Shown here: one piece after another, positions 4,836 to 63,890 of the stretch
How the letters are laid out: each line of letters starts with the position of its first letter
Numbering within the stretch: position 1 is the first letter of the stretch
NCBI RefSeq assembly: GCF_006345805.1
Contig: NC_043012.1
Coordinates: forward strand, 41,726,001-41,790,000
Source of the DNA: Octopus sinensis
Lineage: Eukaryota
Direction of reading: 5' to 3'
DNA length: 64,000 nt
Notes under the pieces: model-generated
Databases searched by the model: none
Told to the model about the DNA's origin: nothing
Seen by the model: the letters and a program-made list of their open reading frames with translations, nothing else
Position numbers and translations under genes: made by a program

Positions 4836-7060
4836 TCTAGTTTCAGCTCACAAGCTGTGGCCATGCTGGGGCACCGCCATTTGGTGTTGCTACATGATTT
4901 TACTTCACGAATGCTTTTTAGCAACTGCCATTTGGTGCATGAGAGAGTTCGATGCAGCTGCCCTCATCTGCACCTCCTGCCGTGAAGTTGGTTCCTCTGG
5001 GAAACCTGACAAGGAGAGATCCAGTTTTATTTTAAAGACATCTACATCCACCCCATGCAGGTCTCTTAGGTTCATCGGGAGGATATTGAAGAGCTGTGGG
5101 CCTCGGAAGCCCAGGCTATCACAGTATCTTGTCCTACATCTTGATGGCAAATTTGTAGTCCTTGGCACTATGCAGTGGCGCCCAAGTCCTTCTAGGATCT
5201 TCCAGATGTATATTATGGCATATCTTTCTCGCCTACGCTCTAAGGAATATAGTCTTAATCTCCTGAGTCTTTCCCAGTAGCTTATATGCTGCACAGAGGC
5301 TATCTTCTTCGTGTATCTTCGTTGGATCGCCTCAAGTTCTGTGATTAACTTGACACTGGATGGTGACCATAGCTGAGAGCAATAGTCAAAGTGGCTTAGG
5401 ACAAGTGTCCTCCAGAGGACCATCATGGTTTCCTGGTCTCTTGTTCTAAAGGTTCTAAGAATCCATCCGGTCAGCCGCCTACTTTTCATTGCCAATTTAG
5501 CAACATGCACATGAAAGGTTGCATCATCACTCATGTAAATACCCAGGTCTCGCACTGATTGTGCCTCTGGGATTGCAATCCCTCCAGGTCCAGTGTATTC
5601 ATTGGGTATTGCATTCAGTTTTGCATGCTGATAGCATAAAGCTTGAAACTTTTCAGTATTGAACTGCATGCTATTCTTTTCAGCCCACTTGTATATTTTG
5701 TCCAGCTCACATTGCAGGTGCTTAGTGTCTTCAGGGTTCTGTATTGCCTGTGAAACTTTTGTATCATCTGCATAACTTGTGATCGTGGCTCTCTGTGTGG
5801 CTGAGGGCATGTCTGAGAGGGCCATTATGAACAGTAGTGGTCCCAAAACAGTGCCCTGCGGAACACCGCTCACTATTTGCGTGTTAATGGAAGTGGCTAC
5901 TACCATCTGACTTCTATCCTTCAGAAAATCATGAAGCCATTCTCCCAGTTTTCCAACTCTGCCAAGATCACGCAGTTTGTGACATATCATTCCATGATCG
6001 ACTTTATCAAAGGCCTTTGCAAAGTCGAGATATATGACTTCCACATTAGAGTGGTTGAGCAGTCGTTTCAGCACCCAGTCATAGTGTAGTAGGAGCTGAG
6101 TTAAGCTGCTTCTTCCTGGTCGGAAACCATGTTGGGTGTCAGGCAGCAAGTCATTTTCTTCAAGGAAGGTGATTAGTTTCCTTCTGACTATTCGTTCCAT
6201 GACCTTGCTGATGTGTGAGGTCAGAGAGATAGGTCTGTAGTTCTTGGCCTCCGCTCTGCTACCTCCTTTATGAATAAGGCATATTTTACCTTCCTTCAGT
6301 TTTCTTGGAAGTTTGCCAGTTGCAAGGAAGCTCTGAAAGAGGAACTGCAGTGGTCTTGCTAGGACTCTCTTACATGCTTTTAGAAGGATTGCCGGGAATC
6401 CATCGGGGCCAGTACCTGAGATTGTTTTCATTTCATCTATAGCCTTTATTACATCGTCTTCCTTTATATTGTTGTAATCAATCATCGCTGCCTCTGATTT
6501 TATATCTGCAGTGGTAAAGAAGTCAGTTGGATTGCTGACTTGAAAATGCCCAAGGGGTGGAGTGAAAACACTCTTGAATTGCTCATTCAGTTTTTCACTT
6601 ATCCTCATTGGATTTCCTGTGAGTGTGCCATCCCTTTCAAGGAGTGGCCCTATCCTACAGTGCACCGTAGCTGTTTCTCTGGCATACCTGTAGAAAGCTC
6701 TGGGGTTAGATTTTATGTTGTCTATAGCCCAGGCTTCTTTGTCTGCTCTTTCCTTTTCATGGGAGAGTTGCAGACATTTTTCGATTTCCAACAGTTTTAT
6801 TTTTAGGCGGGACTTTTCACTGCTTTCAATTTGTTTGTTTCGGCGATTTGAAACTTTTCTACGCGTCTCATTAGAATTTTCCTCTCTCTGGGGATTTTGT
6901 TCTTGTGTACAGTGGCCTTTCTCTCTGGGACACATTTGTAGCATATGGCTTGCATTACAGACATGAATTGTTGAAGTTTCATGTCGATGTCTGGCGAGGA
7001 TAGACATTCAGGCCATTTTCCTGTTTGTCAATGAGGAAGCCTTCTTGGTTGTTCACCCTG

Positions 7061-15571: not shown

Positions 15572-15579
15572 TATATATA

Positions 15580-18500
15580 TACTAAGCAATAAGGGTTTAG
15601 CAACGAATTGCCTTACCACATACCGAATTTAGAAATAGCAGTCAAAGGGTTATAGCTATTTCTTCTACTAAAAAGGGAGATCTCAGATAAAAACAGCAAT
15701 TGGAAGGCTGACACAAACAGGTAAGAGAGAATGATTAACTGCAATCTATCAAACATTTTTAAAGTTATCTACGGACGTACGTTTCGAAATCAAGTTTTTA
15801 GGAAAGCATAAGAATTAAATATTAAATATTAAATAATTCTATCTTACCGAAACTTCTTTTCTCTTCAGCGTAGAATACTATAATCATAAATGATTATATA
15901 TTGAATTTTGAGATACTAGGAGGCACCAACTCAACTCAGTATCAGAGCGAGCTAGAATCCGCAACTAGTATCACCGAATTCAAATTTGTGAATGAAACGA
16001 TTGTGTCAACAGCCCCTTCCACCCGCGTGTAGCCAAAACAAGATGCTGTGGTCATCTACTGAGATAAAATATGGTTATCCGTAATAATGAAGGGTGAAAT
16101 TAATTAATTTGGAATAATTATCAATTACACCAAGTAGTCTTCGGCATGTAAAAGCCTCATTCGAGGAAAATTTAAGTAATACTAAGCAATAAGGGTTTAG
16201 CAACGAATTGCCTTACCACATACCGAATTTAGAAATAGCAGTCAAAGGGTTATAGCTATTTCTTCTACTAAAAAGGGAGATCTCAGTAAAAACAGCAATT
16301 GGAAGGCTGACACAAAAGGTAAGAGAGAATGAATTAACTGCAATCTATCAAATTTTTAAAGTTATCTACGGACGTACGTTTCGAAATCAAGTTTTTAGGA
16401 AAGCATAAGAATTAAATATTAAATATTAAATAATTCTATCTTACCGAAACTTCTTTTCTCTTCAGCGTAGAATACTATAATCATAAATGATTATATATTG
16501 AATTTTGAGATACTAGGAGGCACCAACTCAACTCAGTATCAGAGCGAGCTAGAATCCGCAACTAGTATCACGAATTCAAATTTGTGAATGAAACGATTGT
16601 GTCAACAGCCCCTTCCCACCCGCGTGTAGCCAAAACAAGATGCTGTGGTCATCTACTGAGATAAAATATGGTTATCCGTAATAATGAAGGGTGAAATTAA
16701 TTAATTTGGAATAATTATCAATTACACCAAGTAGTCTTCGGCATGTAAAAGCCTCATTCGAGGAAAATTTAAGTAATACTAAGCAATAAGGGTTTAGCAA
16801 CGAATTGCCTTACCACATACCGAATTTAGAAATAGCAGTCAAAGGGTTATAGCTATTTCTTCTACTAAAAAGGGAGATCTCAGTAAAAACAGCAATTGGA
16901 AGGCTGACACAAACAGGTAAGAGAGAATGAATTAACTGCAATCTATCAAACATTTTTAAAGTTATCTACGGACGTACGTTTCGAAATCAAGTTTTTAGGA
17001 AGAAAGAATAAGAATTAAATATTAAATAATTCTATCTTACCGAAACTTCTTTTCTCTTCAGCGTAGAATACTATAATCATAATGATTATATATTGAATTT
17101 TGAGATACTAGGAGGCACCAACTCAACTCAGTATCAGAGCGAGCTAGAATCCGCAACTAGTATCACCGAATTCAAATTTGTGAATGAAACGATTGTGTCA
17201 ACAGCCCCTTCCCACCCGCGTGTAGCCAAAACAAGATGCTGTGGTCATCTACTGAGATAAAATATGGTTATCCGTAATAATGAAGGGTGAAATTAATTAA
17301 TTTGGAATAATTATCAATTACACCAAGTAGTCTTCGGCATGTAAAAGCCTCATTCGAGGAAAATTTAAGTAATACTAAGCAATAAGGTTTAGCAACGAAT
17401 TGCCTTACCACATACCGAATTTAGAAATAGCAGTCAAAGGGTTATAGCTATTTCTTCTACTAAAAAGGGAGATCTCAGTAAAACAGCAATTGAAGGCTGA
17501 CACAAACAGGTAAGAGAGAATGAATTACTGCAATCTATCAAACATTTTTAAAGTTATCTACGGACGTACGTTTCGAAATCAAGTTTTTAGGAAAGCATAA
17601 GAATTAAATATTAAATATTAAATAATTCTATCTTACCGAAACTTCTTTTCTCTTCAGCGCGTAGAATACTATAATCATAAATGATTATATATTGAATTTT
17701 GAGATACTAGGAGGCACCAACTCAACTCAGTATCAGAGCGAGCTAGAATCCGCAACTAGTATCACCGAATTCAAATTTGTGAATGAAACGATTGTGTCAA
17801 CAGCCCCTTCCACCCGCGTGTAGCCAAAACAAATGCTGTGGTCATCTACTGAGATAAAATATGGTTATCCGTAATAATGAAGGGTGAAATTAATTAATTT
17901 GGAATAATTATCAATTACACCAAGTAGTCTTCGGCATGTAAAAGCCTCATTCGAGGAAAATTTAAGTAATACTAAGCAATAAGGGTTTAGCAACGAATTG
18001 CTTACCACATACCGAATTTAGAAATAGCAGTCAAAGGGTTATAGCTATTTCTTCTACTAAAAAGGGAGATCTCAGTAAAAACAGCAATTGGAAGGCTGAC
18101 ACAAACAGGTAAGAGAGAATGAATTAACTGCAATCTATCAAACATTTTTAAAGTTATCTACGGACGTACGTTTCGAAATCAAGTTTTTAGGAAAGCATAA
18201 GAATTAAATATTAAATATTAAATAATTCTATCTTACCGAAACTTCTTTTCTCTTCAGCGTAGAATACTATAATCATAAATGATTATATATTGAATTTTGA
18301 GATACTAGGAGGCACCAACTCAACTCAGTATCAGAGCGAGCTAGAATCCGCAACTAGTATCACCGAATTCAAATTTGTGAATGAAACGATTGTGTCAACA
18401 GCCCCTTCCCACCCGCGTGTAGCCAAAACAAGATGCTGTGGTCATCTACTGAGATAAAATATGGTTATTCGTAATAATGAAGGGTGAAATTAATTAATTT

Positions 18501-21500
18501 GGAATAATTATCAATTACACCAAGTAGTCTTCGGCATGTAAAAGCCTCATTCGAGGAAAATTTAAGTAATACTAAGCAATAAGGGTTAGCAACGAATTGC
18601 CTTACCACATACCGAATTTAGAAATAGCAGTCAAAGGGTTATAGCTATTTCTTCTACTAAAAAGGGAGATCTCAGTAAAAACAGCAATTGGAAGGCTGAC
18701 ACAAACAGGTAAGAGAGAATGAATTAACTGCAATCTATCAACATTTTTAAAGTTATCTACGGACGTACGTTTCGAAATCAAGTTTTTAGGAAAGCATAAG
18801 AATTAAATATTAAATATTAAATAATTCTATCTTACCGAAACTTCTTTTCTCTTCAGCGTAGAATACTATAATCATAAATGATTATATATTGAATTTTGAG
18901 ATACTAGGAGGCACCAACTCAACTCAGTATCAGAGCGAGCTAGAATCCGCAACTAGTATCACCGAATTCAAATTTGTGAATGAAACGATTGTGTCAACAG
19001 CCCTTCCCACCCGCGTGTAGCCAAAACAAGATGCTGTGGTCATCTACTGAGATAAAATATGGTTATCCGTAATAATGAAGGGTGAAATTAATTAATTTGG
19101 AATAATTATCAATTACACCAAGTAGTCTTCGGCATGTAAAAGCCTCATTCGAGGAAAATTTAAGTAATACTAAGCAATAAGGGTTTAGCAACGAATTGCC
19201 TTACCACATACCGAATTTAGAAATAGCAGTCAAAGGGTTATAGCTATTTCTTCTACTAAAAGGGAGATCTCAGTAAAAACAGCAATTGGAAGGCTGACAC
19301 AAACAGGTAAGAGAGAATGAATTAACTGTAATCTATCAAACATTTTTAAAGTTATCTACGGACGTACGTTTCGAAATCAAGTTTTTAGGAAAGCATAAGA
19401 ATTAAATATTAAATATTAAATAATTCTATCTTACCGAAACTTCTTTTCTCTTCAGCGTAGAATACTATAATCATAAATGATTATATATTGAATTTTGAGA
19501 TACTAGGAGGCACCAACTCAACTCAGTATCAGAGCGAGCTAGAATCCGCAACTAGTATCACCGAATTCAAATTTGTGAATGAAACGATTGTGTCAACAGC
19601 CCTTCCCACCCGCGTGTAGCCAAAACAAGATGCTGTGGTCATCTACTGAGATAAAATATGGTTATCCGTAATAATGAAGGGTGAAATTAATTAATTTGGA
19701 ATAATTATCAATTACACCAAGTAGTTTCGGCATGTAAAAGCCTCATTCGAGGAAAATTAAGTAATACTAAGCAATAAGGTTTAGCAACGAATTGCCTTAC
19801 CACATACCGAATTTAGAAATAGCAGTCAAAGGGTTATAGCTATTTCTTCTACTAAAAAGGGAGATCTCAGTAAAAACAGCAATTGGAAGGCTGACACAAA
19901 CAGGTAAGAGAGAATGAATTAACTGCAATCTATCAAACATTTTTAAAGTTATCTACGGACGTACGTTTCGAAATCAAGTTTTTAGGAAAGCATAAGAATT
20001 AAATATTAAATATTAAATAATTCTATCTTACCGAAACTTCTTTTCTCTTCAGCGTAGAATACTATAATCATAAATGATTATATATTGAATTTTGAGATAC
20101 TAGGAGGCACCAACTCAACTCAGTATCAGAGCGAGCTAGAATCCGCAACTAGTATCACCGAATTCAAATTGTGAATGAAACGATTGTGTCAACAGCCCCT
20201 TCCCACCCGCGTGTAGCCAAAACAAGATGCTGTGGTCATCTACTGAGATAAAATATGGTTATCCGTAATAATGAAGGGTGAAATTAATTAATTGGAATAA
20301 TATCAATTACACAAGTAGTCTTCGGCATGTAAAAGCCTCATTCGAGGAAAATTTAAGTAATACTAAGCAATAAGGATTTAGCAACGAATTGCCTTACCAC
20401 ATACCGAATTTAGAAATAGCAGTCAAAGGGTTATATAGCTATTTCTTCTACTAAAAAGGAGATCTCAGTAAAAACAGCAATGGAAGGCTGACACAAACAG
20501 GTAAGAGAGAATGAATTAACTGCAATCTATCAACATTTTTAAAGTTATCTACGGACGTACGTTTCGAAATCAAGTTTTTAGGAAAGCATAAGAATTAAAT
20601 ATTAAATATTAAATAATTCTATCTTACCGAAACTTCTTTTCTCTTCAGCGTAGAATACTATAATCATAAATGATTATATATTGAATTTTGAGATACTAGA
20701 GAGGCACCAACTCAACTCAGTATCAGAGCGAGCTAGAATCCGCAACTAGTATCACCGAATTCAAATTTGTGAATGAAACGATTGTGTCAACAAGCCCTTC
20801 CCACCCGCGTGTAGCCAAAACAAGATGCTTGGTCATCTACTGAGATAAAATATGGTTATCCGTAATAATGAAGGGTGAAATTAATTAATTGGAATAATTA
20901 TCAATTACACCAAGTAGTCTTCGGCATGTAAAAGCCTCATTCGAGGAAAATTTAAGTAATACTAAGCAATAAGGATTTAGCAACGAATTGCCTTACCACA
21001 TACCGAATTTAGAAATAGCAGTCAAAGGGTTATAGCTATTTCTTCTACTAAAAAGGGAGATCTCAGTAAAAACAGCAATTGGAAGGCTGACACAAACAGG
21101 TAAGAGAGAATGAAAACTGCAATCTATCAAACATTTTTAAAGTTATCTACGGACGTACGTTTCGAAATCAAGTTTTTAGGAAAGCATAAGAATTAAATAT
21201 TAAATATTAAATAATCTATCTTACCGAAACTTCTTTTTCTTCAGCGTAGAATACTATAATCATAAATGATTATATATTGAATTTTGAGATACGGAGTGGC
21301 ACCAACTCAACTCAGTATCAGAGCGAGCTAGAATCCGAAACTAGTATCCCGAATTCAAATTTGTGAATGAAACGATTGTGTCAACAGCCTTCCCACCCGC
21401 GTGTAGCCAAAACAAGATGCTGTGGTCATCTACTGAGATAAAATATGGTTATCCGTAATAATGAAGGGTGAAATGAAATTAATTAATTTGGAATAATTAT

Positions 21501-22167
21501 CAATTACACCAAGTAGTCTTCGGCATGTAAAAGCCTCATTCGGGAAAATTTAAGTAATACTAAGCAATAAGGATTTAGCAACGAATTGCCTTACCACATA
21601 CCGAATTTAGAAATAGCAGTCAAAGGGTTATAGCTATTTCTTCTACTAAAAAGGGAGATCTCAGTAAAACAGCAATTGGAAGGCTGACACAAACAGGTAA
21701 GAGAGAATGATTAACTGCAATCTATCAAACATTTTTAAAGTTATCTACGGACGTACGTTTCGAAATCAAGTTTTTAGGAAAGCATAAGAATTAAATATTA
21801 AATATTAAATAATTCTATCTTACCGAAACTTCTTTTTCTTCAGCGTAGAATACTATAATCATAAATGATTATATATTGAATTTTGAGATACTAGAGAGGC
21901 ACCAACTCAACTCAGTATCAGAGCGAGCTAGAATCCGCAACTAGTATCACGAATTCAAATTTGTGAATGAAACGATTGTGTCAACAGCCCCTTCCCACCC
22001 GCGTGTAGCCAAAACAAGATGCTGTGGTCATCTACTGAGATAAAATATGGTTATCCGTAATAATGAAGGGTGAAATTAATTAATTTGGAATAATTATCAA
22101 TTACACCAAGTAGTCTTCGGCATGTAAAAGCCTCATTCGAGGAAAATTTAAGTAATACTAAGCAATA
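15580..22167 (-). repeat. Tandem array of 11 x ~598-bp non-coding units, each with a hammerhead ribozyme fold (retrozyme-like)
   Basis: ACTAAGCAAT unit starts at 15581, 16181, 16778, 17374, 17971, 18571, 19169, 19766, 20362, 20961 and 21559, with a terminal partial at 22157; (TA)n on both sides; no ORF of 60 aa or more lies wholly inside the array. Confidence 0.95.
15768..15874 (-). ncRNA. Type I hammerhead ribozyme with 76-nt stem II (unit 1; repeated in every unit)
   Basis: Minus strand: UCUACG (stem I) CUGAAGA [76-nt hairpin] GAAAC GUAC GUC^ CGUAGA (stem I'); predicted cleavage between 15774 and 15773. Confidence 0.8.
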
Positions 22168-23270: not shown

Positions 23271-24728
23271 CGTGTATAAGGTATTTGAGGACAGTTATAC
23301 ACTTACACAAAAATGACTCTTAGATACAGACAATAATGGTTTCTTACTAAAAAAATGGTTTTGAAGATAAGAATAAACATATTGATTCGACATTTTATTC
23401 AATAAAATATCCTTCAGCTTCAATAACGGCTTCTATGCGAAGTCTGAATCGCCTAGATGCCAGGATCGAGTGGTCTGTGTTCATATTGGACATATCTGAT
23501 TATGGAGGCTTTTAGGGATTCTTTGGTGTTATGAGGGTGCTCATTAACCTCTTTCTCAACTATGCTTCTTGCATAGTAGTCCAATGGATTGAGATCTGGG
23601 GGAGCTAGGAGGCCAAATGTTGGGGGTTATGTGGTCATGAATATTTTCCGCCATTCTTTCCTGCCTTGTGTGATGGTATCGAATCTTGTTGAATCGCATA
23701 AGGCCTTCCATTGCGTACATTAGTGATCCATGGCTTAACCACTGGATTCAGAACATCTATGTAGGCAGCAGATTTTACTCGAAGACCTTGTGGAAAGAGG
23801 TGAGGAGGCATCACATGTCCTTCATTGTTGACACCCCCCCCCCCTAAAACCATGGGGGTTGCAGGGAATTTTGTATGCATTACTCTTGGAACTCCTGAAG
23901 GGTCTGTACATAGCCATCTGTCATTTCTTCTGTTTACTTTCTGATCTTGATCAAAGATTTTCTCGTCTGAGAAGAACCAAAGGACATATTTCTCTTCTGG
24001 GTTTTTAAGTTTGTTCAGGGGTCTTTTAAGCGATTTTCCTTCACTGTTTCTGACATGAAATGACCTTTTCTCATCGTATAAGATTTGCATCTGATGTCTT
24101 TGTGGACAACATTTCGGATTGTTCCTTCTGACACATGGTGTTCTTTTGCAACCAACGTTCATGGATCTTCTGAGATTGTCATTAATGGTCAGCTTTTCTT
24201 GTTGAATAAATTCTGGTGCTCTAATAGTATCAGTGTGTCTACAATGTTTCTTGCGTTTTGATACTGACGATACACTTCCGTCTTTAGCTTCTAACTCTTT
24301 GCGAATTTTGTAGATTAAGGGTCTAGTGACTTTTAAAAATCGTGCTATCTCTAGATTGCTATGTTCAGCCTTTATAGTCACGATGACTGCGTGCCTTTTC
24401 ATTTCTTGTGTAATCATAGGGTCTGGCATTGATAATTCTGACATATAGAAAATATTGATAAATATGAGAGTCAAGACTATTGAAAAGGTTGCAAGACGCA
24501 ACGAAAATTTTAGGAAAATAAAAATAAGAAAAAAGTGGAAATTTTACCGGTGAGTGTGTTACATTATAAGGCACAAAAAGAAAATGACTGTCCCCAGACA
24601 CAACAGAATATGTTTCAACACACGAACTCATATAAAGAACCTTGCAAACCAAATACAAAAACGAAAAATAAATATGATGTTACAGTAAAATTAACATATG
24701 TCCTTAACTACCTTACGCATCCCACGTG
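23271..24728 (-). mobile_element. Tc1/mariner-superfamily transposon, probably maT/DD37D type, frameshifted (ORF 23635..24501)
   Basis: WFFSDEKIF, VNRRNDRW, QQDSIPSH, and downstream WPPSSPDLNPLDY in another frame; degenerate TIRs (TAAGGTA.TT.AGGACA) at both ends. Confidence 0.85.
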
Positions 24729-27353: not shown

Positions 27354-27607
27354 ATTTGGTTGAATTCTGTACTTCAACTGAAGTGCCTAGTTAGGTCGAT
27401 CTAATCTGCCAACCCAAACAATATCTGGTGAATATCAGACTCTGTGCAGAAGTGATATTCTTGCAGTGTATGCAGTTAATACGACCCAACTTAGGGAAGG
27501 GACCCGCTCTTGTACACCTTTGTTACTCATTTATAGTACACATACACACATATATATACATACGTACATTTATACATACATACATACTACATACATACAT
27601 ACATACA

Positions 27608-27711
<104 letters not shown>

Positions 27712-27782
27712 ATTATATACATAAATACATAAATATATATACATAAATACATACACATATGTATATATATATATATATGTAT

Positions 27783-28892
27783 AATTAAAAATGAAGGTGT
27801 CTGAGAGACACCACCATGCCGAAATAGCAGTCGAAACTCTGACTATAAAAGCTACGTTAAATGTTCATATCGTACCATGAGATAAGACAGAGGGACAAAG
27901 TAGACAAGCAAAAGTTATTGAATAATTCAAGATCCAGGATTTCTGGTTTTGCTTTAAATAAGCTTTACCGTCATCGGTTGAATATATCAAGAGTACATAA
28001 ATACAGATATATATATATGCAGAACAAACGATATACTTACATATACGAACGTCCATACATACATACATATGTACGTATGCACACGGCCAGTTAAATCGCC
28101 CGCCAAAACACCCCATAAGCACGATATGGTTAAAATAAACACCGCAGTGAATATAATAACGAATTATATAAATTTATAAATGAGGATAATATCGATATTT
28201 AAATATCGATATTATCAAGTGGCCAGCATGGGAAAAAATACCGTACAAAGGTAATAATTTTTTACAATTAAAAATGAGGGTGTCTGAGAGACACCACCAT
28301 GCCGAAATAGCAGTCGAAACTCTGACTATAAAAGCCACGTTAAATGTTCATATCGTACCATGAGATAAGACAGAGGGACATATCGATATTATCCTCATTT
28401 ATAAATTTATATAATTCGTTATTATATAACACTGCGGTGTTTATTTTAACCATATCGTGCTTATGGGGTGTTTTGGCGGGCAATTTAACTGGCCGTGTGC
28501 ATACGTACATATGTATGTATGTATGGACGTTCGTATATGTAAGTATATCGTTTGTTCTGCATATATATATCTGTATTTATGTACTCTTGATATATTCAAC
28601 CGATGACGGTAAAGCTTATTTAAAGCAAAACCAGAAATCCTGGATCTTGAATTATTCAATAACTTTTGCTTGTCTACTTTGTCCCTCTGTCTTATCTCAT
28701 GGTACGATATGAACATTTAACGTGGCTTTTATAGTCAGAGTTTCGACTGCTATTTCGGCATGGTGGTGTCTCTCAGACACCTTCATTTTTAATTGTAAAA
28801 AATTATTACCTTTGTACGGTATTTTTTCCCTTGCTGGCCACTTGATAATATCGATATTTAAATATCGATATTATCCTCATTTATAAATTTAT
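27783..28892. repeat. ~483-bp unit present as 1.2 direct copies plus ~1 inverted, circularly permuted copy; carries a hammerhead fold
   Basis: 27783-28266 unit, restart 28267-28380, then reverse complement 28381-28892; flanked by TA repeats. Confidence 0.9.
28594..28652 (+). ncRNA. Hammerhead ribozyme candidate (U4C variant); second copy on minus strand at 27925-27983
   Basis: AUUCAA CCGAUGA C-GGU..GCUU/AAGC..ACC-A GAAA UCCUGGA UC^ UUGAAU. Confidence 0.6.
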
Positions 28893-29447
28893 ATATATGT
28901 ATATATATACGTACATACATACATATATACATTCATACATACACACAAACACGCACACACATGTACAGCTTTCCCCCTTCATATACATACACTACACGTG
29001 CTATCAACCACTGGTCAACTTCATGTAAGAGTACATTAAGGCATGGTGTGTCATGAACAGGAAGTAGAAAATGAGAAGCTGTTTCGTCCTAGAACGACCC
29101 TTATATTCTATTCTATTTCAATTTGTTTTATTTGCTGGGTTTGAATTAAGGGACAAGGTGCATGGTCTTCACAAACTCTGAAATTGATGTTATTATTTTT
29201 CCGGTTGCATCTTTATAGGTAAAAACATGACGAGTGGAGTGGATAAAGTTGTGGAGGATCGATGGGAGGAAGTGGTGGGTGTAGGAATGAGTGTGGATCT
29301 GAGGAGCAGGGATAGGACACTGCACAACACGAATTATCAGAAGGGAACTTAGAAGTGAACCAAGAGTATCTGAGGGTTAGTGGCACGAGATCAATCAACC
29401 CTGAGGAACAGAACCCGTTATAGTACCGGTAAAAAAAAATGACGGAA

Positions 29448-36663: not shown

Positions 36664-36868
36664 TGAAATGGATAAATGAATTATCTTGTTACGGATTATT
36701 CAAAATTTAACCGATACCTGGGTAGCAAAAATCACAACAGAAAAAACACGGTTGAGGTTACGACCATGGGGTGTCGCAACCGTGCCTTAGCGCGGATAAT
36801 TGAAGTTTTATATATTTAGTGAAGGGAAGAAATGGAGCTGAACGAAGATTCTACAAAATTCCTTTATA

Positions 36869-38039
36869 TCTCTTATTATAAAGGGCAGATTTTATCTGCC
36901 TCCCTTTGTAAGTTATAGAAATCTACAATATTGAATTTCTTCAATTACAATTTACCTAGCATTTTTAAGAGTAGAATGCATCGGGTTTTGCCAAGTCCAG
37001 TTTTTAAAATTTAAACTCCAATTAAGCAAAATTTACAGAAAACTCACATTCTGGTGTGTATGTCAAATGCTTTTCTTAGTCTGGTTTACAGTACACGCAA
37101 ACGCACACACACAGTGTGCAACGAATAAAGTGAAACTAGATGTAATATTTGTTTCTGTCTATCACGCTGATAGATACATGAGTAAAATGTATGGCAAGCT
37201 AACATATAAGAGTGAGTGAAAATGTTCTTGGAAGAGAGTAAATAGCGACAGAGTGATTTGAGGAAGACTAAACTGAAAGTATGAAACAGTGTTTATGTAT
37301 AAACAGACGACACTTATATAAACCCTTTCGTTACCAAACCGCCGGAATTTACTTATTCATATTTAAATGAGAATATCAGAGTAAATCTCTTTAGTACATT
37401 CGTGAAAACACGTATTATACTTCGTAAACACTTCAAATACAGTTTTGTACAAAATCGAAGTGTAATTTTAATTCCGTGAATTATGGGAGATTTTTTTTCC
37501 GAAATTTGTTCCTATTGTGTTTTCAAAATTTGTAATTCTGACAAAAAATGGATACGAATTTCATTATATCAAGCAGCGAGTCAGAATTCGAAGGATTTTC
37601 TACTGAAGACCTTCATAAATCTAACTATGACTGAAAAAAAAAGCATCTTTATATAAGAGTGAAGTTGTGTGTCTGTCTCCTACGATTTAGATTCGTAACT
37701 ACTCCCACATTTTGCGGTGCAGTTTAACCAAAAGCAGGTATCTTATAGTCGTGATTCATATCGAGCCCTTCTGGGTATTAGCGCGCGTCTACGATGAGTC
37801 TACGATTTTAAAAAAATTTACCATCATATTTTTCCATTTTAATGCATTTTTTTCGCTTTTATATAAGGGAAGTAACTCTCTAAAAATATCTACGATGTGT
37901 CAACGATTTAAAAAAAAATTTACCTTAATTTTTTTTCAATTTTTAATGCATTTTTTTGCTATTTTTTGGCTATAACTCTCTAAAATGCTTATATAGTTAT
38001 TTCCCTTACAACCCGAGCAACGCCGGGCGATACTGCTAG
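36869..38039 (+). mobile_element. Non-autonomous Helitron, copy 1
   Basis: 5'-TC, 3' hairpin CCCGAGCAACGCCGGG, CTAG terminus, inserted between A and T. Confidence 0.85.
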
Positions 38040-38143
38040 TATATATATATAGGGAGGGAGAGAGAGAGAGAGAGAAATGTGTCTATCTTCCTATCTATCT
38101 AACTATGCGTGTGTGCATGTATATATGTATATATATACTCACA

Positions 38144-39318
38144 TCTCTTATTATAAAAGGCAGATTTTATCTGCCTCCCTTTGTAAGTTATAGAAATCTA
38201 CAATATAGGATTTCTTCAATTACAATTTACCTAGCATTTTTAAGAGTAGAATGCATCGGGTTTTGCCAAGTCCAGTTTTTAAAATTTAAACTCCAATTAA
38301 GCAAAATTTACAGAAAACTCACATTCTGGTGTGTATGTCAAATGCTTTTCTTAGTCTGGTTTACAGCACACGCAAACGCACACACACAGTGTGCAACGAA
38401 TAAAGTGAAACTAGATGTAATATTTGTTTCTGTCTATCACGCTGATAGATACATGAGTAAAATGTATGGCAAGCTAACAGATAAGAGTGAGTGAAAATGT
38501 TCTTGGAAGAGAGTAAATTAGCGACAGAGTGATTTTAGGAAGACTAAACTGAAAGTATGAAACAGTGTTTATGTATAAACAGACGACACTTATATAAACC
38601 CTTTCGTTACCAAACCGCCGGAATTTACCTATTCATATTTAAATGAGAATATCAGAGTAAATCTCTTTAGTACATTCGTGAAAACACGTATTATACTTCG
38701 TAACACTTCAAATACAGTTTTGTACAAAAATCGAAGTGTAATTTTAATTCCGTGAATTATGGGAGATTTTTTTCCGAAATTTGTTCCTATTGTGTTTTCA
38801 AAATTTGTAATTCTGACAAAAAATGGATACGAATTTCATTATATCAAGCAGCGAGTCAGAATTCGAAGGATTTTCTACTGAAGACCTTCATAAATCTAAC
38901 TCTATGACTGAAAAAAAAAAAGCATCTTTATATAAGAGTGAAGTTGTGTGTCTGTCCCCTTCGATTTAGATTCGTAACTACTCCCACATTTTGCGGTGCA
39001 GTTTAACCAAAAGCGGGTATCTTATAGTCGTGATTCATATCGAGCCCTTCTGGGTATTAGCGCGCGTCTACGATGAGTCTACGATTTTAAAAAATTTACC
39101 ATCATATTTTTCCATTTTAATGCATTTTTTCGCTTTTATATAAGGGAAGTAACTCTCTAAAAATATCTACGATGTGTTAACGATTTAAAAAAAAAAATTA
39201 CCTTAATTTTTTTTCAATTTTTAATGCATTTATTTGCTATTTTTTGGCTATAACTCTCTAAAAATGCTTATATAGTTATTTCCCTTACAACCCGAGCAAC
39301 GCCGGGCGATACTGCTAG
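38144..39318 (+). mobile_element. Non-autonomous Helitron, copy 2 (near-identical to copy 1)
   Basis: Same termini and A|T site; 104-bp spacer between the copies. Confidence 0.85.
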
Positions 39319-39788
39319 TATGTATATATTTGTATCTATGCACACACAGTTATATATATATATGTATGTATATATATATGTGTATGTATATATATATATA
39401 TATATGTATATATATGAGTGTATGCACATATGTTGGTATATATATGTTTGTATGTATATATATATATATACATGCATGTATATTTGTGTGTATGTATATA
39501 TATATGTGTATGTAAATGTATATGTATATATGTCTGTATATACATATGTATATATATGTCTGTATATATATCTATGTATATATTTTTGTGCGTATATATA
39601 TATATGTGTATGTATATATGTATGTATATATATATATGTATGAATATATGTATGTATGTATATGTGTGTATGTATATATGTGTATGTATACACAAATGTA
39701 TATATGCGTGTATTTATATATATATGTGTGTGTGTGTGTGTGTATGTGTGTGTGTGTGTATGTATGTGTGTATGTATATATACATATA
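39319..39788. repeat. (TA)n/(TG)n microsatellite
   Basis: Direct reading. Confidence 0.9.
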
Positions 39789-54638: not shown

Positions 54639-55776
54639 TCTTAGCTTACAATTTCTTTCTTTCAACAATTGACAACTGAAGTACGCTCGCAAATTAATAC
54701 TACCAAAACTTAGCGACAGAAAGTAAATTAAAAACCAATTTTAATTTATAAAATATAGAACAATAGCATCTACTCACCATATGTCAGTGAATTGTTGGTG
54801 TGTGTTTGCAAATGTGTTCGAATGAGAAAGAGAATTGTGTTTGGCGCCTTTTTTACTAATAACAAACACACACGTGTGTCTGTGTGTGCTTGAGTGTTTG
54901 TATGTAGTTGTTTTAAACGTTTGTGTTCGGCACTGTCATATATGTATATGTTTGCGTGTCTATGTGTCTGTGTGAGAGGAGTAAATCGTTATGTATTTAT
55001 TTCCTGTCTGTCTTTTAAAAATTTTTTTTTGAGGAGTGGTTTAAGCATTAAAAAGAGAAAGTAGCAGAATGTGTGATGTTGAACAAGAGTGGTAGAAAGA
55101 GAATATGATAGTGGTATACACTTGCAAAGAGAAAGTAGCAGAAAGTGTGGTAGGTTTAAGGTACACTTGCAAAGAGAAAGTAGGAGAAAGTGTGGTAATA
55201 GAAGGAGTAAAGCATTTGAAATGAGTAGTGGTTTAAGGTACACTTGCAAAGAGAAAGTAGGAGAAAGTGTGGTAATAGAAGGAGTGAAGCATTTGAAATG
55301 AGAGAGGGAAATCGTAAAATATTGAGTTTTCTCGAATTTTTGCTTAATTGGGGGTCAAATTGAAATAAATTTATATGCCATGACCCAATGGAATGTACTT
55401 CGAAAAATCATAGGTAAATTCCAATTGAAGGAATTGTGTGATGAGTAAATCGTTATGTATTTATTTGTTTCTATTTCCTGTGTATTTTTTTTGAGTAGTG
55501 GTTGAAGGTACACTTGCAAAGAGAAAGTAGGAGAAAGTGTGGTAATAGAAGGAGTGAAGCAGTTGAAATTAGAGAGGCAAATTGTAAAATATTGAGTTTT
55601 CTCGAATTTTTGTTTAATTGGGGGTCAAATTGAAAAAAAATTATATGCCATGACCCAATCGAATTTACTTCGAAAAATCATAGGTAAATTCCAATTGAAG
55701 AAATTCTATATTGTACAATTGTATTAAAAAGAAACATAGTCACAGGCAGAGAAAATCTGCTTTTTATCATAAGAGA
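54050..55776 (-). mobile_element. Non-autonomous Helitron, copy 3 (same termini, different interior with tandem duplications)
   Basis: CTAG plus the same 3' hairpin at 54050-54080; 5' TCTCTTATGATAAAAAGCAGATTTT at 55776; A|T site. Confidence 0.75.
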
Positions 55777-56089
55777 TAGATAGGTTTGTGGGAGGGAGAA
55801 AGGAATGAAGGAAAGAAAGAAAGGAAGAAAGAAGAAAGAAACTGAGGGAAAGCGAAGAAGAAAGTGATCATCTGAATGAGTTAGAGTATTTAAATACCCG
55901 GTAAAGTACTCAATACATGGTGAAATCTTTGTTTGTCCATTCAACTTTTTCCATCGGCTTGAAAGGCATTTTTGAGTTTCAGGTCATGGGAAATATTCCA
56001 GGTGAGACGTTTAAATGTGGTGGGACGCACGTGACAAGGGCGGCAACGGAGTGAATTTTCAGTTATGTGCATGTGCGCACACACAATAA

Positions 56090-62054: not shown

Positions 62055-63890
62055 CCTAATGGTTCTGATCCTAAATACGGATGCATAAAAGGCAATGGAT
62101 GCACCTTATTCCATCCTAAACTGTGCCAAATTTCTGTCTCACAAAGGATGTGCCTGAACCCAGAATGCAACCACCACCATCTGAAGAGCACAAAACGATC
62201 ACAGAATAAATATAAACAGGAACAGAGGAAATCTAGGATAACAACAAGAACAAAATACAACCACGTTTCCCCTCCCACAATCAAACAACGTAGACAGAAC
62301 CATGAAAAAACACCAAACAACGCCAACATGAAATATGTATCCTCTGACCAAGTGGCAAACCAAACAAGTAACTCTTTTTTACTGACATACCTAGAAAATA
62401 TGAAGGCCGACCTAAGCCAGGAGATCCAGCGAGCTATCACCAACCATCTATGCAAATCACAAGGACCACTCACCCATTACCAACTTCCCTTACCTCGACA
62501 TTCCTGTTAAATGTACGTGGCATCAACCCATCAATTATTGCCCAAAAATGGAAGATCCCATATATAGAGAGTTGGCTTGCCGAAATGGCACATTGCTTCC
62601 CTTTCTTTATCCTTACCGAGACTCACCTGAACAACACCCATATGGACGCAGAGGTGAAAATAAAAGATTTCACCATTGTTCGTGCGGATCGCACAGACCG
62701 AAATAAGGGAGGGACAGCCATCTTTATCCATGACTCCTTTTCACTTGATGCCAAGACATATTTTCCAATGGCTACTGTGAATCGGTATCACTATACAACA
62801 AAGCCAAGGACATAACCATTGTTGGTCTTTACAGGCCTCCCCAGGCACCTCTAAAGTACTTTGAAGAGTGCCTTAGCAAAGTCAAGTCCTTCCTTCGGAA
62901 GTACCACTCCGAAACATACTAGTGATGGGTGATTTTAACCTCCCTCATGTGAACTGGCCCACAAATACTCTGAAGTTAGGCAAGTGCTCTACATCAGATA
63001 GAGCAGCAGCAGAACTGCTCTTTAATCTGATGGATGAGTATTTCCTGACTCAGCTAGTGCTTGAACCAACGAGACAGAATAAAACGATCTTGGATCTGGT
63101 ATTGACCAATCACTCTAGCTACGTTCACAGTATTTCAGTCGAAAAAACTCTCCTCTCAGACCATGACATGGTACTCTGCAATCTTAATTCCCGACATATA
63201 AAAACCAAACCAGCCAATCCCACTCCATGGCACCCATTTGACCACATAAACTTCCACAAAGCGGACTGGGTAACAATCAGAAAGGATCTATCTTCCATCG
63301 ACTGGTCTTTTATTCTCAATTCCTCTCATATTGAGACCGCGTGGCAGCACTTTGAAAACATTGTCACCTATACATGCTCTAAACACGCTCCCAAGAAATC
63401 TACTAACACAAACAGAAATCGGCTCCCTAAAAAGAAAAAAAACACTCATCAGGCGCATCAAAAGACTCAACAAAAAAATCAACCAATTAAAATATTCTCA
63501 CACACAACATCCACATTCAACAACAATGAAAAGACTAGAGCTGGAAAAACTTCATCTGCAGACCAGCATGAAAACCTCCATTGAAAATTAAAGAGCTGTG
63601 GAGGAACAATGGGTAATCAAAAACATCAAACAGAACCCAAAAGTGTTCTATTCTTATGCAAATAAGCATAGAACCACTGTCTCACCCATTGGGCCATAGA
63701 TTGATGATAACGGCATTCCCCAACACGATGCTAAAGAAATGGCAGAAATACTGCAGAAACAATACTGCTCTGTCTTTAGTGTTCCCACTGATATTGACGT
63801 AAGGGAAACGAACGAAGTTGACTCCCAACACAAAATCTCAGACATAACCTTCACTGCCACTGACATCGTAGCAGCAATAAATGAGGTCCT
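62055..63890 (+). pseudogene. CR1-group LINE 5' half: ORF1 Cys/His-rich end, APE endonuclease and linker; frameshifted
   Basis: [16 protein letters not shown]...CLNPECNHHH; LLNVRGI, ILTETHL, GLYRPP, MGDFNLPHVNW, PTRQNKTILDLVLTN, LSDH; linker similar to that of the 4836-7062 copy. Confidence 0.85.

Follow-up and report, generated by a model that had tools for sequence, protein, structure and literature searches.

How does a single insertion come to consist of a direct and an inverted copy of the same short repeat, each beginning and ending at a different point of the unit? This question is raised by a locus of Octopus sinensis (NC_043012.1) that lies within the 64,000 nt of DNA analyzed here (the window, to which all coordinates refer). 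Two head-to-head arms, which are 98–99% identical, are built from one unit of 482–483 bp and extend from 27783 to 28895. Positions in the unit (u) are counted along the reference unit U (28414–28895, 482 bp). The left arm (27783–28380, minus strand in the sense of the hammerhead described below, 597 nt or 1.24 units) runs from its 5' end at u267 through the unit junction to u381, and its 3' end lies at a fixed site A (u381–384), on (TA)n. The right arm (28380–28895, plus strand, 516 nt or 1.07 units) runs from its 5' end at u449, within a 32-bp palindrome, through the unit junction to u482, and its 3' end lies at a second fixed site, B (u about 478–482), also on (TA)n. The two 5' ends meet at 28380 with a 1-nt overlap. 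A first-pass annotation of this DNA had described direct plus inverted arms of a 483-bp unit, with the inverted copy crossing the unit junction, and the alignments agree: the direct repeat (27780–27897/28263–28380) has a spacing of 483 bp and an identity of 97.5%, the inverted matches (27783–28198/28794–28380 and 28165–28380/28895–28680) have identities of 98.6% and 99%, respectively, and the right arm does cross the junction. Most probably, the locus is an insertion of a 482-bp non-coding hammerhead repeat, which a Penelope-like (PLE) enzyme with RT and GIY-YIG domains copied in trans from an RNA template.

Several further features of the locus are relevant for this interpretation. A "tail" of about 100 nt that spans site A to site B (28795–28895, plus strand) is present only at the right end. 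A perfect 32-bp palindrome (28844–28875; second copy at 28185–28216) immediately precedes site B and contains a minor end site, B', and a 7-bp hairpin (28765–28781, plus strand; copies at 27796–27812 and in the second direct unit) immediately precedes site A. The target on the left is a (TA)n/(TACA)n microsatellite (27550–27782), and the right flank is a (TA)n-rich microsatellite (28891–28951). The final 12 nt of the left flank recur at 28891–28902, which makes them a candidate target duplication of 12–13 nt. The longest coding potential of the element is a 122-aa stop-free frame that runs through simple repeats, and no RT plus GIY-YIG open reading frame was found within the element. A read-through transcript of the locus is predicted to form one hairpin with a duplex of about 417 bp, shorter than the approximately 480 bp previously estimated.

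Each arm carries one type I hammerhead motif, in accord with the initial annotation of position and parts. A pattern scan of the whole window yielded exactly two motifs, with cores at 28600 (plus strand) and 27977 (minus strand), namely the motif of the right arm (28594–28652, plus strand, predicted cut between 28646 and 28647) and an identical motif in the left arm (27925–27983, minus strand, predicted cut between 27931 and 27930). The motif comprises a 6-bp stem I (AUUCAA/UUGAAU), a non-canonical CCGAUGA core (U4C), an interrupted stem II with one unpaired base on either side, the GAAA box, a palindromic stem III (AUCC-U-GGAU), and the AUC triplet. Because the loop of stem III is only 1 nt long, activity is predicted to need a dimer, as described for hammerheads of this stem III type (Cervera and de la Pena, 2014, PMC4209133). 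The minimum free energy fold of the monomer contains only stem I and a portion of stem II, and lacks the three-way junction (z −3.15). Rfam gave no hammerhead family match (no matches at all in one search, and none among the matches listed, 150 of 206, in another); this can be attributed to the variant core and stem II and does not count against the motif. A further candidate hammerhead, close to site A on the opposite strand, was rejected: in 48 aligned copies, it lacks both stem I and a CUGANGA box, and it is a plain hairpin.

To what extent the structure of the locus is idiosyncratic can be judged from the other copies in the genome. A search for the unit gave 2,183 candidates, 40 of which were scored, and 197 loci were collected by three routes: the best full-unit matches (30), the canonical-core pattern (30 of 158 matches), and end patterns (all 23 and 14 young matches as well as 70 of 79 and 30 of 158 older matches). 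After removal of 1 locus without a segment, 30 duplicates, and 2 segmental or unplaced copies, 164 loci remained, of which 104 have two arms head to head, 49 have a single arm, and 11 are of more complex structure, with end positions taken from BLAST boundaries accurate to about 5 nt. In the loci that had not been selected by their ends, 78 of 84 3' ends are located at A (u381–384), B (u482), or B' (in the palindrome before B), and the distance of about 100 nt between A and B holds across the family. Furthermore, 91 of the 104 two-armed loci pair one A arm with one B or B' arm, the others being A/A (2), B/B (1), or having one unclassified end (10). This partner rule is also apparent when only one end had been selected: the unselected partner of a selected A end was B or B' in 56 of 60 cases, and the partner of a selected B end was A in 11 of 14. 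Fixed 3' ends combined with the partner rule imply that the apparent permutation at the locus results from two fixed start sites plus random truncation. Thus, the arms do end at different points of the unit, A and B, as had been noted, but these points are not arbitrary; they are fixed family-wide. The mapping of end points over genomic copies that had been proposed as a check, carried out here for the 164 loci, showed that only the 5' ends vary and, unlike the 3' ends, are scattered across the unit.

Fixed 3' ends, a tail at one end, and an inverted 5'-truncated copy (adjacent in 104 of the 164 loci) correspond to published PLE anatomy and place the family in the class of non-LTR retrozymes or non-autonomous Penelope-like elements. 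Together with the (TA)n targets, these features bear out the Penelope-type insertion anatomy that had been recognized at first sight. TA repeats are present in 184 of 208 outer flanks, a number that is partly built into the end-selected patterns. Candidate target duplications were found at 5 of 79 loci versus 2.9 by chance, which is not above chance, and pure TA sequence hides duplications. The 5' flanks of the 49 single-arm loci have sequence in common in only two pairs. Insertion at TA, hairpins at both end sites, and the absence of demonstrable target duplication and of protein homology would be compatible with a DNA-level element (a MITE, a Helentron-like element, or a satellite spread by recombination) that carries a fossil ribozyme and became inverted via DNA repair. 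However, the ends are asymmetric, fixed at the 3' side and truncated at the 5' side, there are no fixed terminal inverted repeats, the 5' ends follow the ribozyme cut site, and the anatomy is that of the PLE loci of the same genome, so that we consider a DNA-level origin very improbable.

Judged by its sequences, the family appears to work like a non-autonomous PLE, and it has the structural features of both PLEs and non-LTR retrozymes. For the latter, a non-coding unit of about 150–1000 bp with a type I hammerhead is required, a range that includes the 482-bp unit. With the animal non-LTR retrozymes, as described in the accessible parts of the sources (PMC7229834; Li, Clavereau and Pollet, 2026, bioRxiv 10.64898/2026.07.22.740005), the family shares the non-coding, low-GC unit of a few hundred bp, the type I hammerhead with palindromic stem III, head-to-tail copies, and the co-occurrence with PLEs. 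In contrast to them, it consists mostly of sub-unit head-to-head pairs rather than long arrays, its young cores are U4C or C3U, and no pLTR homology was found. In the available text of Li et al. (10.64898/2026.07.22.740005), elements are termed active if they have two consecutive ribozyme-bearing units; with one ribozyme per arm, the present locus falls outside this definition, whereas such consecutive units are present at three other loci (L019, L026, and L030). With the EN+ PLE insertion units, as far as these are covered in the available text of Craig et al. (2021, PMC8557442) and Arkhipova et al. (2013, PMC3846280), it shares the partial tandem, the adjacent inverted 5'-truncated copy, the one-end tail, (TA)n targets, and palindromes at the inverted junction; it differs in the lack of an open reading frame and in a tail of about 100 nt instead of the published 30–40 nt. 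The minimal PLE hammerheads, in the portion of Cervera and de la Pena (PMC4209133) that was accessible, likewise have an unpaired base after A9, a long stem II, a dimer-requiring palindromic stem III, and opposite-strand pairs 100–700 bp apart; the interrupted stem II, the extra unpaired A before GAAA, and the U4C core distinguish the present motif from them.

The hammerhead fold is conserved among the copies, as the first-pass annotation had anticipated: in 59 aligned copies, 97.3% of cells are paired. A C-G to U-A double change in stem II was observed in 16 sequences (probably representing one event), in addition to wobble exchanges. No variation was seen in stems I and III, which, therefore, give no covariation and are uninformative. 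The more divergent subfamilies (82–89% identical to U) have the core CUGAYGA, for which there are 158 matches in the genome. Among the 38 copies closest to U, the core is CCGAUGA in 23, UUGA-type in 14, and canonical in 1. As far as the sequences allow this to be judged, the young subfamilies thus seem to bear weakened cores. U4C is a natural low-activity variant that, according to the consulted part of PMC3088659, lowers hammerhead activity in vitro and leaves enough activity in vivo for a viroid. An expansion with weakened cores would fit the dispensability of cleavage for insertion in vitro that is reported in the available text on a Penelope-type element (PMC11167929).

Which RNA served as the template can be approached via the lengths of the arms and the positions of their 5' ends. 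The median length of the end-selected arms is 144 nt, and only 3 of 173 exceed one unit, so that the present locus belongs to the long tail of the distribution. Across all arms, 39 of 257 are longer than one unit, i.e., contain head-to-tail copies, and 2 of 257 are longer than two. The 5' ends pile up next to the predicted cut: in the older set, which includes some CCGA cores (6 of 18), there are 66 arms at risk, and 32 of these terminate within the 33 nt on the 3' side of the cut; the corresponding figure for four flanking windows is 58 of 256 (p = 9e-5). The simplest reading is that cut RNA was the template. The pile-up is centered 6–17 nt 3' of the cut, where most of the stops occur, so that stalling of the RT at the folded ribozyme could also produce it. 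In the young set, 4 of 16 arms stop at the cut compared to the 32 of 66 in the older set, a difference that is not significant (p = 0.10). About half of the arms that reach the predicted cut site read through it, and 111 of 120 copies retain an intact cut-site word; this indicates that uncut multimers or circles were also used as templates. Stops at a second cut site further upstream (3 of 9) equal those in neighboring windows and are uninformative with respect to linear dimers versus circles.

At the locus itself, both arms cross the predicted cut and neither lies within the other, which implies a template longer than one cut monomer. The circular or multimeric template that had been proposed for it is, therefore, retained in this general form, while the arms look the same for a circle and for an uncut multimer. 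The subfamily's U4C core and the dispensability of cleavage in vitro for a Penelope-type element somewhat favor the uncut multimer. In the retrozyme model, cut RNA is ligated to a 482-nt circle, which would be the main template for both arms. The seamless read-through at the cut site (the 111 of 120 copies), arms of 2 to 4.7 units (L026, and L030 with 4.7 units), the similarity of the tandem units of L026 (0.3% difference from each other versus 4.8% to the nearest other locus), and the strong self-pairing of the unit (z −7.1, in part owing to simple repeats) would all agree with it, as would RNA circles, which, in the available parts of the sources, have been demonstrated in other metazoan retrozymes (PMC7229834) and suggested for PLEs (PMC4209133). 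However, a circle has no 5' end, whereas in the older set half of the arms have theirs just 3' of the cut; the arms rarely exceed one unit; and the closest subfamilies expanded all the same with CCGA (23 of 38) or UUGA-type (14 of 38) cores. Scattered ends, which the first-pass annotation had regarded as a sign of a circular template, are not what was found: the 3' ends are fixed and many 5' ends stop just 3' of the cut. Hence, a circle as the main template appears unlikely, although it deserves serious consideration.

The next issue is how the second arm is made. Near-perfect palindromic junctions were observed in about half of the end-selected loci, 44 of 91 loci have an A arm contained in the B arm, and the sequence directly after the predicted cut is a short palindrome. 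These observations would suit a fold-back or self-priming mechanism, in which one arm is copied from the other, either from hairpin-primed cDNA or by self-priming on an antisense template, as proposed in the accessible text of PMC3846280. Such a mechanism needs one arm to lie within the other, yet in 42 of the 91 loci, including the present one, neither does, which refutes it as the sole route and argues that both arms were templated from RNA. In addition, of 33 palindromic junctions, 8 have extra bases that derive from the A arm and 7 have extra bases that derive from the B arm, the other 18 lacking a spacer or being ambiguous, whereas a B-first fold-back allows extra bases of the B arm only; and the 5' pile-up tracks the cut site of the sense strand. 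Taken together, the family statistics weigh against self-priming as the sole route, and we consider copying of one arm from the other improbable.

If both arms are templated from RNA, a positional match of their 5' ends is of particular interest. In 32 of 67 end-selected loci, the two 5' ends are at most 15 nt apart (null 8.5; 0 of 20,000 shuffles), and the coincidence persists without the pairs in which both arms end near the cut (20 of 55, null 5.5). The shuffle retains shared stall sites, so that such sites cannot fully explain the coincidence; subfamily-specific stalls might add to it. Lock-step synthesis with equal arm lengths was rejected, as equal lengths (2 of 67, null 6.2) are not enriched. 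Private alleles common to both arms of a locus occur 9 times in 9,170 sites compared to 3 times in 18,081 for the nearest other arms; they could also stem from gene conversion or assembly polishing. At only 16 of 65 loci is the divergence between the two arms smaller than that from the nearest other locus. The positional 5' match and the shared private alleles suggest that the same RNA molecule often templates both arms. Five loci (L100, L103, L118, L134, and L208) are insertions in three pieces with internal jumps to other positions of the unit, which suggests that template switching is frequent.

The following sequence of events would account for the two arms. Tandem copies would be transcribed and the RNA partly self-cut, probably as dimers. 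The enzyme would nick both strands of (TA)n, thereby priming two cDNAs, one at the internal site A and one at B, often on one and the same RNA. Each cDNA would stop at the cut 5' end of the RNA or at a stall, and would extend farther if the RNA was an uncut multimer or a circle. Finally, the 3' ends of the cDNAs would be joined via a template jump or microhomology, yielding the head-to-head junction. Priming by both target strands and short microhomology at the inverted junction are also characteristic of L1 twin priming, where the arms cover different parts of one RNA; in the present family, by contrast, the arms overlap and start at two fixed sites. For PAc Poseidon in vitro, the available text of Frangieh et al. 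(2024, PMC11167929) describes a tail between two internal RT start sites, cutting of both target strands, and a dispensable ribozyme. The two internal start sites, the AT-rich target, and the position of the ribozyme upstream of the start sites match the present family. A rule of one site per arm and an account of the inverted junction were not found in the accessible text of that source, and it reports no RNA ends at the cut, whereas the genomic 5' ends of the present family cluster near it.

As a tentative generalization, on which we would place somewhat less than even weight, Penelope-type inverted structures might arise when both target strands are primed on one RNA at two dedicated sites, the trailing cDNA passes the leading one and displaces it, and the insertion is closed by a jump to the 3' end of the other cDNA; ribozyme-cut linear RNA would then be a real template, and lineages with weakened ribozymes would have kept jumping, with longer arms. 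According to the available text of Craig et al. (PMC8557442), the origin of the tandem and inverted structures of PLEs is undefined. A literature search that included few subscription papers found no published description of the present family or of the one-site-per-arm rule. The element class and the direct-plus-inverted anatomy are already in print, so that the locus itself is ordinary. The present analysis adds the 5' pile-up, the positional coincidence of the 5' ends, the non-nested arms, the weakened young cores, and an intact RT-GIY-YIG family whose end motifs are similar. The locus is useful as a short natural substrate, and the end statistics of the family (a single start site for each arm, 5' ends that agree in position rather than in length, stops close to the cut, and arms of which neither can be a copy of the other) yield sharp predictions for the in vitro PLE assay that is already in use.

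With regard to the enzyme acting in trans, a search of the genome for GIY-YIG gave 5,029 candidates, with 147 matches among the 150 scored, and there are intact frames of 775–781 aa with an RT domain (just below the Pfam cut-off) plus GIY-YIG at the C-terminus. Upstream of the endonuclease, these frames contain a CX4CxxC linker, which is described for the Neptune and Nematis types in the available part of PMC8557442. In an abundant PLE family (L061:174–3874 and related loci), which terminates on (TA)n at two sites some 40 nt from each other, a 479-aa upstream frame (no Pfam match) overlaps the 781-aa RT-GIY-YIG frame. The commonest PLE family has its ends on (TA)n at two positions separated by about 40 nt (used by 15 and 7 of 22 matches, with some loci double-counted); the first motif resembles site A, and a hairpin plus the second motif resembles site B. 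BLAST found no DNA homology of unit U to any of 30 GIY-YIG loci, out of the 147 matches, and 8 longer PLE stretches, and none of the 164 family loci continues into a PLE frame as one element (3 have PLE fragments, at least 200 nt away). Therefore, a partner is only suggested, by short AT-rich motifs, and the commonest RT-GIY-YIG family may be regarded as a candidate. A hammerhead scan of the 3' regions of related PLE loci (L031–L060) found none.

Several repeats related or adjacent to the family were also observed. At three loci (L116, L145, and G000:C5:16033000–16057000), entire two-armed insertions are duplicated in tandem or within larger repeats. A different short repeat with a hammerhead, whose stem I is 12 bp long, was found at L035 (near 174, minus strand) and L049:2250–2400; one occurrence has a CCGACGA core, and one is a head-to-head palindrome that follows (TA)n. 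Within the window, 15579–22167 is occupied by a 597-bp unit that is repeated head to tail in about 11 copies with a similarity of 98%. The end of this unit that abuts TA has a 15-nt block and the terminal motif in common with site A of the hammerhead family, and the repeat is likely to be a sister non-autonomous family; type I hammerhead scans of 15579–22167 found no motif. At 36868–39329, a unit of about 1275 bp is present in two direct copies with a similarity of 98%, and there are weak matches to it at 55593–55778. The minus strand of the window also contains a 700-aa frame (4905–7007), which we take to encode a LINE-like RT, a fragment that presumably derives from a Tc1/mariner-like transposase (23635–24543), and what we assume to be an endonuclease-like LINE fragment (62372–63584).
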